Shown: positions 22,293 through 33,794, counted from the stretch's first letter. The stretch is DNA of 33,794 nucleotides from an uncultured archaeon (GCA_964558645.1 CAZLEV010000009.1:108249-142042); one strand, 5' to 3'. The notes: generated from the letters alone by a model not told the origin. Made by a program: numbers and translations.

Positions 22293-23495
22293 TTGGCTGA
22301 AACTCTGACAAAACCATCAAGACGAATCAGAAATATGATAGCCAAAGAGCTACGCCTTATTGTGAAGGATAAGGTCGCGCTATTTCTCATATTTCTCCTG
22401 CCTGCGGCCCTGATTGGGATGCTGTATTGGGTCACCAATGAGAGCTCCATGGGAGGAATGCAAGCTGGGGGCGTCGATGGTGGCGGATCAACAGGGGGTA
22501 CTGGCAACGCGACGGATGATACAGGAGGTATTTTTGAGGGAGTAAATATCAGCATGGGACTCATCGACAAGGACACTACTAGAACCTACGACGGTGTGGA
22601 CCTGTCCGAGAACTTCACAGCTTATTTGGATAGCATTGTTTCGGACCTGAGGATATACAATAGCACAGAAGAAGCATTCAACGCATTGTACGAAGAGGAG
22701 ATATTGGGATACGTGGTGATTCCAGATGGGTTCGAGGCCAACCTAACCGTGAACGAGCCAACATATGTTCTGGTCCATATGGATGCAACGAAACTCATAG
22801 AACAGAGCACAGTTATGGGTGTCGTGCAAGGTGCGACAATCGCATTCAGAGCGTCAAAATTGTGGATACGCTCCGAAGTGTTTCCGAGCATCCAGATCGA
22901 ATTTGCTCCCGAAGGAGGATACTTGGAGAGCACTTTTGGAGGGTTCATCGTCATATTCTCAAGCTATCTAGGAATAGCCATGACATCAGCCCAGTCGATA
23001 GTGGGTGACGAGCCACTCAGGAGGATGCTTCTAACTCCAACCAACCGTCTCGAAGTCATCGTCGCAAAAGTCCTAGCCTACGTTGTAATCGGATTCTTCC
23101 AATCCCTCTTGCTGGTATCGCTGTGGGTCTTTGTATTCAACCTGAATCTGAATACGGGATTTGAAACACTGATCATTATCATGAGTCTGAGTTCGCTTAC
23201 TGGCTCCACGACAGGGATCCTTATCTCCGCGGTATCTTCAACCCGCTTGCAGGCCAATCAGATGTTTCTCTTCGTCCTATTTGGAACACTCATTCTCTCC
23301 GGATTCTTCATCGATGTGGGCATCATTGACGAAGTGATGCCATTGAATCAAGGACTAAAGATATTGATAGATACAGCATTCAAAGGACTGACTGTGGCTG
23401 ACGTAGCTGACCCCATTCTACGATTACTGGCTTTTTCGGCTGGAACAGTACTGCTAGCGACGTTCATATTCTCAAAGAAGCCGACACTAGGATAG
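22293..23495 (+). CDS. ABC-2 type transporter permease with extracytoplasmic domain
   Basis: KELRLIVKDK then TM1, a large external loop (GYVVIPDGF), LRRMLLTPTNRLEVIVAK signature, and five further TMs including LSGFF...MPL. Confidence 0.9.
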   Translation: MAETLTKPSRRIRNMIAKELRLIVKDKVALFLIFLLPAALIGMLYWVTNESSMGGMQAGGVDGGGSTGGTGNATDDTGGIFEGVNISMGLIDKDTTRTYDGVDLSENFTAYLDSIVSDLRIYNSTEEAFNALYEEEILGYVVIPDGFEANLTVNEPTYVLVHMDATKLIEQSTVMGVVQGATIAFRASKLWIRSEVFPSIQIEFAPEGGYLESTFGGFIVIFSSYLGIAMTSAQSIVGDEPLRRMLLTPTNRLEVIVAKVLAYVVIGFFQSLLLVSLWVFVFNLNLNTGFETLIIIMSLSSLTGSTTGILISAVSSTRLQANQMFLFVLFGTLILSGFFIDVGIIDEVMPLNQGLKILIDTAFKGLTVADVADPILRLLAFSAGTVLLATFIFSKKPTLG

Positions 23496-23508
23496 ATAGG
23501 TGACTCAA

Positions 23509-30577: not shown

Positions 30578-33500
30578 AGAAATACTACGTTGTTCTAGCA
30601 CTAGCTGTTGCATGCATGATTTTCTGTTTTGGGAATCCGGTGGGGGATTCGGCCCGCATGAGTGGTCTCAGGCCACGACCTGTCGGGAGAATGCACGAGG
30701 CCGCAATAGCACCATTTGAAACGGCGCTTGTATGGTCCAATAGCACAGGTGGACAGGTGAATGGGATTGCTGTCGGAGAGTTTGATACCGATGGCTATCA
30801 CGAAACAGCCGTAATCACTCAGAATGGTACACTCTACATGTTCGAAGAGAATGGAACTAAGGCGTGGCAGATGAGTCTTGGAGCCACACCCTACTCCATA
30901 ACAGCAGTCACAGCAGATCTCACTATTCCTGAGGAGCTGCTCATAGGTACGACAAACGGAGTTCTTCTGATTGCAGCCAACCAATCAGTGTTACTGAATC
31001 TGACCATGGACGACACGGTCCGAGTGGTTGCGGGAGCCGACCTCGATGGGGACACATTTCATGAGATTGTCGCTGGCTCAGATGATTCTCGGGTATACGC
31101 ATACAGTATCACGGGGACGCAGCTGTGGAACTACACCAGCAACTCGTTTGTGCGGCAACTGGAAATCGCAGACTTCGACCAGGACGCTCGAGATGAGGTA
31201 CTTGCAGCATCGCAGTTGAGGCGATTCTCCCTACTGAATCACAATGGCAGTGTGCTTCTCGAGAAGAACCTTCCCAACTCAATCACAGGTATCGCGAGTG
31301 GAGACTTGATTGGGTCAGCGGACCTCGAAGCAGTCTGCATAGACAGCGGGGAATATCTACGGGCCTACTTCATCAACGGTACACCTGCTCTCTCTGTCGA
31401 TGTCGGTGAATCACTCTCAGCTATTGAAGTCGGGCAACTGCAAGTGGGCGGATACGACGAGATAGCAGTTGGAACAACAGGAGGGCAACTCAGGGTGCTC
31501 AATGCCACCGGGAGCCTACTCTGGAACAGAACCCTTGGAGGAGAAGTGAACGCAATCCTGTTCGCGAATGTCGGAGGGCTTGCCACCAACCAGATTCTCT
31601 CTGCAGTTGACGGGCAGGTGAACCTGCGGAATGCAACAGGGTACCAGATCTCAGACTCGAATCTGGTGGGCTTCAGTGATAGCCTGGCTGTTGGTGACCT
31701 TGACGGTAGCGGAAAGCAGGAATTTGCGATGGGCTCCAATACCGGTACAGTGAATGTGTACGGAAAGGACTCCGACAAGGATGGTCTCGCTGATGCCAGG
31801 GAAACTCTCATCGTGGGCACCCTATGGAACGATAGCGACACCGACAATGACGGCCTGAGTGACGGAGCAGAGGTCTTGGAATATGGCACGGATCCGTTGA
31901 ATCCGGATTCGGATGGTGATGGTCTCAACGACTTTGCAGAGGTAATCACGTATGGTACCGACCCGAACTCACCAGACTCAGACGGCGATGGTCTGACGGA
32001 CTGGCAGGAAGTGTACCTGGGAACTAACCCGAACCTGGCTGATACCGACGGGGATGGCCTTACAGATTACGAGGAGAATAATGTCACGAAGACCTCACCC
32101 ACCATGGCCGATTCAAACGGGAACGGCATCAACGATGCACAGGACGATAACGATGGTGACGGTCTGACCAACATACAGGAGGTTCGTATCACCCTCACTG
32201 ATCCCAATGACGTGGACACCAACGGCAACGGGATATCAGACTACTATGACGATGAGGATGGTGATGGCCTGGCGAATTGGAAGGAGATTGAACTCGGAAC
32301 AGGCGTCCATAATCCAGACAGCGACGGGGACGGTCTTCTTGACGGAGAAGAGGTAAAGACGTACAAGACAGACCCACTCGATGAGGACACCGATGAAGAT
32401 GGACTGACCGACTATGAAGAAGTCAAGATTGTTGGCTCAGACCCGACAAAGAGTGATACAGACGGGGATGGATTGAACGATTACGAGGAGTATGTCACCT
32501 ACGGCACAAACGTGACCAACAGTGACACCGATGGGGATGGACTCACCGATTACGAAGAGATTAGAGTCTACAACACGGACCCATTGGTAGCAGACTCGGA
32601 TGGCGATGGCATAAGTGATGGTGATGAAGTTCTCATATATGAAACGGACCCGAATTCACAAGACACAGACCTCGACCAGCTCAGTGATTATGACGAGATA
32701 TTCATCTATGACACAAATCCGCTGAAGGCAGACACAGACGGAGATGGACTAGATGACTATGCAGAGGTCATGGTGTGGGGCACTGACCCAAACAATGTTG
32801 ATACAGACGGGGATGGGATTCTAGACAAGGATGAAATCGATTTCTATCCCACATTCAACGCAACCAACGCATTCACCTTCAATAACACCATTAATGACTA
32901 TGAATGGGACACGGATGGAGACGGTCTGTGGAATGGTCACGAGTTCTATCTAACCAGGACAAACCCCAATCGAACCGACTCGGACTTGGACGGAGTCCCC
33001 GATGACCAAGAAGACCTAGACCTTGATGGTCTCACGAACTATGAAGAGCTGTATGTCTATGGAACGCATCCGCGCCGGCCAGATACTGATGGAGATGGAG
33101 TGAAGGATGGGGATGAGGTTCTTATCCTTGGCACAGACCCGCTTGACACCGATTCGAACGACAATGGCGTCAGCGACTATGACGAGGACTTCGATAGAGA
33201 TGGCCTGAGTAATGGAGTTGAGCTCTACATCACAGAAACCGATCCTCTCAACGCCTACACACATGGTCCCAGTGAACCCCGCGACGATATGTACGACTCT
33301 GATGGCGACGGACTTCCCAACTGGTTTGAAGTCGAGATGACCGGAACAGACCCACTGTATGATGATTCCAACGACAATGGTATTCTAGATGGCGATGAAG
33401 ACCCCGATGGCGATGGGCTCTCAAACTACGAGGAGTATCTAGCGGGAACAGACCCGCTTAACGAGGACACTGACGGAGACGGCCTGACTGACTATGAAGA

Positions 33501-33794
33501 AGTAATGCTAACGCTGACAGATCCATTAGACCCTGATAGTGATGGTGATGGCATAAACGATGCTGACGATGACCAGGACCATGATGGCCTCAGCAACATT
33601 GACGAGATTCGCGTGTATAATACATCACCAATACTCTGGGATACTGATGGGGACATGCTAAGTGACGGTGATGAAATAGCATGGGACACGGACCCTCTCA
33701 ATGAGGACACGGACGGGGACGGACTGCTCGATGGAGAAGAAGTCCACCAGTACGGCACGGATCCGCTGAATCCTGATTCCGATGAAGATGGGCT
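30574..33794 (+). CDS. Large secreted surface protein: FG-GAP/VCBS-like beta-propeller plus long thrombospondin type-3-like Ca-binding repeat region, truncated at window end
   Basis: Absent from the ORF track because there is no stop in the window. ATG 30574 overlaps the upstream TGA (ATGA), with a GGAGGAGG RBS. Signal peptide [20 protein letters not shown]. About 8 ~40-aa blades ([58 protein letters not shown]), then DxDxDG repeats. At least 1073 aa open. Confidence 0.9.
31768..33794 (+). repeat. Coding tandem repeat array of DxDxDGLxDxxE...GTDP (bacterial TSP3-like Ca-binding) units
   Basis: I count 31 complete 12-residue DxDxDG-type loops plus one truncated at the edge, for example [23 protein letters not shown] and [23 protein letters not shown]. 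Units are divergent at the DNA level. Confidence 0.9.

Follow-up and report, generated by a model that had tools for sequence, protein, structure and literature searches.

A conserved Asgard gene set encoding an ABC-2 type transporter and a predicted pseudo-subtilase GIFT membrane protein

A 33,794-nucleotide (nt) stretch of DNA from a Thorarchaeota (Asgard) metagenome-assembled genome (MAG), hereafter the window, carries at positions 22293–33794 five co-oriented open reading frames (ORFs) on the + strand. They encode an ATP-binding cassette (ABC) type 2 permease, two different ABC ATPases (nucleotide-binding domain proteins NBD1 and NBD2), a 1464-amino-acid (aa) membrane protein that joins a degenerate S8 subtilase head to a GIFT domain, and the N-terminal part of a giant calcium-repeat protein. 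We lean towards the view that these genes specify a conserved Asgard membrane machine, in which an ABC-2 transporter core has a dedicated type I membrane glycoprotein (predicted), the 1464-aa S8-GIFT protein, as its outer accessory. Such coupling is supported by gene linkage that persists through rearrangements, by matching phyletic distributions and by the loss of catalytic residues from the subtilase head. New here are the contrast in catalytic state between ABC-linked and stand-alone S8-GIFT proteins, the phyletic match of an NBD1 extension, and an active paralogue in the same genome. A preliminary description of this DNA, made from its sequence, had known of no earlier description of the combination, and our literature searches (Asgard with site-1 protease, MBTPS1 or GIFT; Thorarchaeota subtilisin with ABC transporter) likewise found no published description.

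Gene order, transporter components and distribution

The genes and the region ahead of them are as follows.

22129–22292, no strand: divergent intergenic region, 164 nt, read directly
22293–23495, + strand: ABC-2 permease, 400 aa, TTG start
23500–25191, + strand: NBD1, ABC ATPase with N-terminal extension, 563 aa, GTG start
23500–24234, + strand: NBD1 N-terminal extension, aa 1–245, predicted cytoplasmic, conserved
25196–29590, + strand: pseudo-subtilase/GIFT type I membrane protein, 1464 aa
29591–30577, + strand: NBD2, second ABC ATPase, 328 aa
30574–33794 (ORF to 33792), + strand: giant propeller/Ca-repeat protein, N-terminal part, 1073 aa, open at the window end

The intergenic gaps are 4 (or 13), 4, 0 and −4 nt, the larger first value applying if NBD1 starts at an in-frame ATG 9 nt downstream of its GTG, and the last junction, between NBD2 and the giant gene, is an ATGA translational overlap. 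A Shine-Dalgarno-like GAGGAGGA lies at 22280–22287, 5 nt upstream of the permease TTG at 22293, and this TTG aligns with Met at the same residue in orthologues. The preliminary description had seen here five tightly spaced, co-oriented genes behind a divergent gap, forming one operon-like cluster in an Asgard archaeon, and had made its reading depend on whether relatives keep the gene order; all of this was confirmed. In Thorarchaeota and in a second family of the order, all loci with enough flank read the divergent 805-aa gene, permease, NBD1, S8-GIFT, NBD2, the giant gene and a sixth co-oriented gene, which encodes a soluble TPR protein. Since the order is kept in every Thorarchaeota locus with enough flank, the five-gene arrangement is not a product of chance.

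Three further lineages have the core in altered forms. Family f12 has permease–NBD1–S8-GIFT–NBD2 and no giant gene. In Candidatus Freyarchaeum deiterrae (family f19) an NBD1–permease–NBD2 cluster is divergent from the S8-GIFT gene. In genome G154 (genus g39, family f9) a diverged permease–permease–NBD1–S8-GIFT locus (L074:11172–19900) encodes a dead 1629-aa S8-GIFT protein with 24% identity. The complement of transmembrane (TM) domain and NBD genes differs between lineages, G154 having two permeases and one NBD1-like ATPase. In family f7 the S8-GIFT gene is unlinked, and an NBD1–x–NBD2 cluster stands elsewhere in the same genomes.

The phyletic distributions of the parts match. The part of the 1464-aa protein outside the S8 domain has one orthologue of ~1460 aa in each of 24/24 same-family genomes, a profile of its C-terminal region (aa 985–1395) found an orthologue in 57/59 genomes of that family (f1), and full-length S8-GIFT orthologues occur in families f1 (57/59), f2, f7, f12 and f19. 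The NBD1 N-terminal extension is single-copy in exactly these families (f1 27/27, f2 1/1, f7 3/3, f12 6/7, f19 6/6) and was found in 0 of the 18 other Asgard families sampled (5/23 families positive). On these sequence comparisons the extension is a good lineage marker for the system.

The permease and the two ATPases qualify, by their sequence features, as an ABC-2 type transporter, in agreement with the preliminary description of an ABC-2 permease with two non-identical NBDs. The permease matches Pfam ABC2_membrane_3 (80.8 bits) and ABC2_membrane (56 bits), and a hydrophobicity scan predicts 6 TM helices with an outer loop of ~165 aa between TM1 and TM2. NBD1 and NBD2, which are 32–35% identical to each other, match ABC_tran (95 and 93 bits) and the DrrA-type model TIGR01188 (167 and 177.5 bits, both below that model's cut-off). 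Both have complete Walker A/B, signature, Q- and H-loops, followed by a C-terminal domain; the motifs read directly are Walker A GESGAGKST, LSGGQ, DEPT and the H-loop His in NBD1, and the canonical ATPase motifs with the H-loop His in NBD2. The preliminary description had also seen a tandem TrmB-like module in NBD1. This could not be confirmed: the N-terminal extension has a sub-threshold match to the TrmB C-terminal family (19.8 bits, threshold 22.2), comparison of the halves with each other by BLASTP revealed no repeat inside it, and an Atlas features search gave no usable match.

The pseudo-subtilase GIFT protein and its relatives

The 1464-aa protein begins with a sequence that reads by eye as a probably cleaved signal peptide and contains 23 N-x-S/T sequons. 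Its domains are as follows.

25364–25645, + strand: subtilase pro-domain, ~aa 57–150; the orthologue profile aligns with pro-Tk-SP (3afg) from its residue 28 onward
25694–26569, + strand: S8 subtilase fold with a degenerate site, Peptidase_S8 147.7 bits
26627–28165, + strand: middle all-beta region, aa 478–990, a supersandwich followed by immunoglobulin (Ig)/macroglobulin (MG)-like sandwiches, AlphaFold2 (AF2) pLDDT 78
28160–28936, + strand: GIFT domain, aa 989–1247
28928–29248, + strand: membrane-proximal MG/Ig-like beta-sandwich, aa 1245–1351
29291–29587, + strand: TM helix (aa 1366–1388), basic stop-transfer and helical cytoplasmic tail of ~76 aa

A profile of 18 orthologues best matches the Thermococcus protease precursor pro-Tk-SP (3afg; E 6.6e-75), pro-domain included. 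In this copy the catalytic Asp and His are kept (D176 and H219), whereas A416 occupies the place of the nucleophile and D313 that of the oxyanion Asn. Across the 18 orthologues none of the Asp, His and Ser positions is invariant. Position 176 is G or S in 3/18, including a same-genus genome (G001) whose protein is 93% identical; position 219 is R or P in 2/18 (G025 and G015); and position 416 is A, T, S or V, with Ser in two. The Asp at 313 is invariant in 18/18, and neither the Gly nor the Pro of the GTSxAxP motif is kept. More than 100 other columns are invariant across the same proteins. Because the triad varies while so many columns do not, the fold appears to be kept for something other than catalysis. 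By these residues the head is a true pseudoprotease, as the preliminary description had proposed in calling it catalytically dead. Public records hold >100 pseudoprotease orthologues, of which the named ones are called 'S8 family serine peptidase', 'subtilisin family serine protease' or 'hypothetical protein'; given the missing catalytic residues, the enzyme names are misleading.

The same genome encodes an active relative. P0007 (L072:8543–11434, − strand, equivalent to C1:108542–111433) is a 963-aa paralogue with a signal peptide, a pro-domain, an S8 domain with D, H, N and S intact, an Ig-like domain, a GIFT domain, a sandwich, a TM helix and a basic tail. Its layout is that of eukaryotic site-1 protease (S1P), to which it also comes close in length. 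Its GIFT domain passes DUF4350 (31.3 bits, cut-off 30.4) and matches MBTPS1_4th weakly, and its neighbourhood contains other subtilase genes and no adjacent ABC genes. P0007 is colinear with the 1464-aa protein: the S8 domains are 33% identical, the Ig domain ahead of GIFT matches at E 1e-4, and the GIFT domains match by hhalign with 96.7% probability (E 3.6e-10). Active S8-GIFT-TM proteins were found in two other Asgard families as well. In a comparison of six proteins, the ABC-linked forms (the 1464-aa protein and those of Freyarchaeum G060 and of G154) lack Ser and Asn, whereas the stand-alone forms (P0007, G066 and G026) retain D, H, N and S. Two Asgard families have active S8-GIFT proteins, ~1270 aa long, with a zinc ribbon at the C-terminal end (L075:2723–6550, − strand; L076:7513–11331, + strand), and both genes adjoin a gene for class V fructose-1,6-bisphosphatase.

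The preliminary description had a dead subtilase head added to a GIFT partner, a direction that is probably wrong. Since active colinear S8-Ig-GIFT-sandwich-TM relatives exist, in this very genome, and GIFT/DUF4350 domains fused to S49 or M28 peptidases occur in other prokaryotes, the sequences suggest that a protease-GIFT protein probably lost catalysis on recruitment to an ABC module, and that the gain of a head by a GldG protein is less likely. We also looked for a canonical GldG-like module in the same genome; the sole protein that passes ABC_transp_aux (C6, 368 aa) is not encoded beside ABC genes.

The GIFT assignment, which the preliminary description had made, is confirmed at three levels. 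When the whole protein is scanned, GIFT-type Pfam and NCBIfam matches at aa 1066–1238 stay below threshold. We modelled and scanned aa 985–1395 alone (AF2 pLDDT 77 overall, mostly 84–93 within the GIFT domain), and this region passes IFT52_GIFT (29.0 bits, cut-off 27.2). Among the orthologues, 17/18 match IFT52_GIFT and 12/18 match ABC_transp_aux; the G030 orthologue passes both ABC_transp_aux (37.6 against 34.7) and DUF4350. Searched against the Protein Data Bank (PDB), the C-terminal profile matches IFT52 at E 1.2e-11 and the GIFT region of human S1P at E 0.009. VIA-align superimposes the GIFT model on IFT52 with Z 22 and a root-mean-square deviation (rmsd) of 2.0–2.3 Å over 188–195 residues, above the Z of 12–16 obtained with ThuA, GH42 and GATase folds. 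In archaea, proteins of GIFT type that begin with a signal peptide and carry a TM helix at the C terminus are known from other gene contexts (arCOG01314, PMC5898192).

The regions on either side of the GIFT domain are all-beta. A profile search of PDB sequences with the middle region found no match; by Foldseek (E 1e-6 to 6e-8) it resembles the N-domains of GH94 phosphorylases, glucoamylase and YidC P1, and transglutaminase and alpha-2-macroglobulin sandwiches. The membrane-proximal sandwich (model residues 261–367) matches MG domains of complement C5 and alpha-2-macroglobulin with Z 11.5–12.

Two eukaryotic proteins share longer stretches of this layout. S1P (MBTPS1/SKI-1; PDB 8UW8, 8UWC and 9CSD) is colinear through signal peptide, pro-domain, S8, beta domain, GIFT, TM helix and basic cytosolic tail; its structure has S8, P-like and GIFT subdomains in this order ahead of the TM helix (PMC11231238). 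VIA-align places S1P GIFT residues 617–873 on the model with Z 17.3–17.6 and rmsd 2.7–2.8 Å over 190 residues at 20% identity. Unlike S1P, an active protease, the 1464-aa protein is dead, has ~430 extra beta-domain residues and is encoded with an ABC transporter. S1P was not among the 60 best solved structures for the S8-head profile, the nearest being archaeal Tk-SP, and the MBTPS1_4th Pfam family matches weakly in 3/18 orthologues (best E 1.8e-4). The second is OST48/Wbp1 (6S7T_G, 6EZN_G and 6C26_B), whose whole subunit is matched by the C-terminal 411 aa (GIFT, sandwich, TM helix and short tail). Foldseek ranks OST48/Wbp1 first and IFT52 next for this region, with E 1.9e-13 to 1.5e-12 over 389–410 columns for OST48/Wbp1; VIA-align gives Z 17–18.5 over 320–327 residues, with an rmsd of ~14 Å and a different domain orientation. 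A PDB profile search with the C-terminal region found no sequence-level match to OST48. Asgard WBP1 homologues have been reported only from Heimdallarchaeia (PMC10307638).

The giant protein and the genomic setting

The N-terminal 1073 aa of the giant protein comprise a signal peptide, an FG-GAP-type beta-propeller (~aa 45–410) and a TSP3 Ca-binding array, with a TSP3_bac score of 357 bits, at least 16 TSP3 stretches within the window and matches to propeller families. Extension downstream, as the preliminary description had suggested, reached the end of the gene. It resumes on C11 beyond a 100-N gap as a 5′-open ORF (L009:3–3509), which adds 21 more TSP3 stretches, a TM helix and a 124-aa cytoplasmic domain. 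A close relative (92% identical in the giant protein, 93–95% in the neighbouring genes) has the gene in one piece. The orthologue it encodes is 2246 aa long, and our two pieces map to residues 1–1054 and 1095–2246 of this protein, which has 64 DxDxDG-type Ca loops, 26% acidic residues and 30 sequons. The cytoplasmic tail has no Pfam match, and Atlas scores for it were <0.9, with only a chance-level Coatamer_beta_C lead. A co-encoded, secreted Ca-binding protein of >1000 aa, as first described, is thus borne out at ~2246 aa. Of the two roles offered for it, cargo or structural partner, the first is unlikely: the protein carries a signal peptide of its own at the N terminus and is anchored by a TM helix at the C terminus, and the operons of f12 and f19, the two families outside Thorarchaeota in which the core is linked, do not include the giant gene. 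In Thorarchaeia it may be a structural or functional partner.

Relatives of NBD2 that are 72–95% identical come mostly from Candidatus Thorarchaeota MAGs, a few being labelled Hermodarchaeota, Promethearchaeota or uncultured archaeon, and the DNA datasets found are sediment and mat metagenomes. The window (C9:108249–142042) is 100% identical to C11:233–33971. Both copies are bounded by N gaps: one lies at the end of contig C9 and the other at the start of contig C11, each beside a 100-N scaffold gap, and the 33.8-kb window is probably one contig placed in two scaffolds. The duplication adds to the assembly's 6.3% contamination estimate.

The divergent neighbour (19711–22128, − strand) encodes an 805-aa soluble protein that is conserved throughout Thorarchaeota, with 29–84% identity in relatives, and has no match in Pfam or NCBIfam. 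A sugar-use cluster at 5679–10774 (+ strand; galactose-1-phosphate uridylyltransferase, galactokinase and a GH38 alpha-mannosidase) is unlinked to the operon. The − strand at 2–3108 encodes a beta-helix protein resembling NosD, whose ORF runs off the start of the window, and an S8 subtilase of 658 aa; S8-domain matches across the genome number at least 10 and are scattered.

Proposed role and alternative explanations

In the arrangement we favour, the S8-GIFT pseudoprotease would serve as an outer accessory subunit of the transporter, in a role like the one proposed for GldG with GldF, or like that of NosD on NosFY or EnvC on FtsEX. Hydrolysis of ATP would serve to load or shift a binding module outside the cytoplasm, not to power proteolysis, and the subtilase cleft, perhaps together with the carbohydrate-module-like supersandwich, may hold a ligand. 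The predicted topology has the pseudoprotease and the giant protein as single-pass proteins with cytoplasmic tails, the extra domain of NBD1 in the cytoplasm and the TPR protein soluble. In Thorarchaeia the operon would have gained a Sec-exported, C-terminally anchored propeller/Ca-repeat fibre of ~2246 aa and a cytosolic TPR protein, the fibre being a likely outer-face partner and the TPR protein a likely inner-face partner, neither of them cargo. Our leading guess for the substrate is a glycan or lipid-linked surface component.

The preliminary description had called this operon a GldAFG-like module. What stands is that an ABC-2 module and a GIFT membrane protein go together: the gliding-associated GldA/GldF/GldG set of Bacteroidota and the ABC_transp_aux/COG3225 proteins share with the Asgard set an ABC-2 permease and ATPase with a membrane-anchored outer GIFT protein. 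Membership does not stand, as none of the three Gld models is matched, and the likeness is one of kind, not of family. Against the GldA equivalog TIGR03522 (cut-off 402.6) NBD1 and NBD2 score 103.7 and 124.7 bits; no GldF model was listed at E ≤ 0.01 in the NCBIfam scan; and the GldG equivalog TIGR03521 gives 12 bits (E 0.056) against a cut-off of 389.85, with weak local matches in 11/18 orthologues (best E 0.0008). The Asgard set differs from Gld in its two different ATPases and its ABC2_membrane_3 permease, in a GIFT protein that is a 1464-aa pseudo-subtilase fusion with a probable cleaved signal peptide and one C-terminal TM helix, and in its archaeal host, where a type IX secretion or gliding context is not expected and was not searched for.

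NosDFY and FtsEX-EnvC are ABC engines that act through an extracytoplasmic partner that is not transported, EnvC being a dead LytM protein. Their accessory proteins are not homologous to S8-GIFT, so the likeness we infer is one of analogy, extending to the fact that EnvC is also a pseudo-enzyme. CspC of Clostridioides difficile and PCSK9 keep an S8 fold as a binding module without turnover, as proposed here; unlike the 1464-aa protein, they have no GIFT domain, TM helix or ABC context. NCBIfam gives weak local matches to CspC and CspBA, limited to a 60-residue S8 segment.

An interface prediction for the permease with the GIFT-sandwich-TM part scored 0.01, which is evidence neither way. Several points weigh against this arrangement. 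Contact between the S8-GIFT protein and the transporter is something we infer. The stoichiometry is unusual, with a single permease gene for two different NBD genes; G154 instead has two permeases. The neighbouring genes give no clue to a substrate. The S8-GIFT gene of family f7 is not adjacent to ABC genes and so can be encoded separately. Furthermore, the five families may form one clade, in which case the phyletic match perhaps reflects few independent events.

The alternative that survives best, which we nevertheless consider unlikely, is a role in glycan export and glycosylation: the ABC-2 transporter would flip or export a lipid-linked oligo- or polysaccharide, as Wzm/Wzt and TarGH do, and the OST48-like end and the supersandwich would pass the glycan to heavily glycosylated proteins of the cell surface, the giant fibre among them. 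A second family matched by the permease, ABC2_membrane (PF01061), is the one that includes Wzm-type permeases. The match of the C-terminal 411 aa to OST48/Wbp1 over its whole length (Foldseek E ~1e-13, VIA-align Z ~18), the likeness of the middle domain to the N-terminal supersandwiches of sugar enzymes, and the sequons (23 in the S8-GIFT protein, 30 in the complete giant orthologue) all fit such a role. However, the operon contains no glycosyltransferase, AglB/STT3 or sugar-nucleotide gene in any lineage examined, and a search of its neighbourhood found no AglB/STT3 gene. The beta-sandwich and GIFT fold matches are generic and do not indicate function, and the OST48 likeness was not seen at the sequence level.

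It is rather improbable that the association is loose, with an ordinary small-molecule or lipid efflux pump and an independent surface scaffold or receptor merely co-transcribed. The NBDs are indeed closest to DrrA-type drug-efflux ATPases, the S8-GIFT gene of family f7 stands alone, and stand-alone S8-GIFT-TM proteins are common in Asgard archaea. Yet the linkage persists across three gene orders in different families, the NBD1 extension has the family distribution of the pseudoprotease, and, among the six proteins compared, the three ABC-linked forms have lost catalytic residues that all three stand-alone forms retain.

That the 1464-aa protein retains proteolytic activity through a non-canonical site, for example to process the giant fibre while the ABC module exports or regulates something else, strikes us as very improbable. 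Asp176 and His219 are present in this copy, two orthologues have Ser at the nucleophile position and the substrate-binding scaffold is well conserved, but no triad position is invariant (G001 has lost the Asp, G025 and G015 the His), all 18 orthologues have Asp in place of the oxyanion Asn, and GTSxAxP has lost its Gly and Pro. Least credible of all is type I secretion-like export of the giant protein by the transporter, which the adjacent, ATGA-overlapped genes and the acidic, RTX-like Ca-binding repeats might bring to mind: we rejected it on topology, the protein having a signal peptide at one end and, at the other, a TM anchor that leads into a cytoplasmic domain. In families f12 and f19, moreover, the core occurs with no giant gene, and ABC-2 permeases are not known to be protein exporters.

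A broader proposal, which we offer as doubtful, starts from the layouts themselves. The Asgard S8-Ig-GIFT-sandwich-TM proteins might be prokaryotic kin of S1P and of the OST48/Wbp1 module, existing in active stand-alone and dead ABC-linked forms, of which the latter would keep an ancestral GIFT role as the outer partner of ABC-2 exporters of surface glycans or lipids. If true, this kinship would link a protein layout of the eukaryotic ER and Golgi to an archaeal surface machine.

The gene set is single-copy and near-universal in Thorarchaeota. In it an ABC engine is combined with a pseudo-enzyme, the membrane-proximal half of which is best matched structurally by eukaryotic IFT52, OST48 and S1P. 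The GIFT domain was reportedly defined in 2004, and its role is said to have been an open question since. If the coupling of transporter and S8-GIFT protein is real, the system would provide a tractable prokaryotic context for GIFT domain function, and it offers a test of whether the layouts of S1P and OST48 go back to Asgard archaea. The giant Ca-binding propeller fibre, with its cytoplasmic tail and TPR partner, further hints at a link between inside and outside at the Asgard cell surface.

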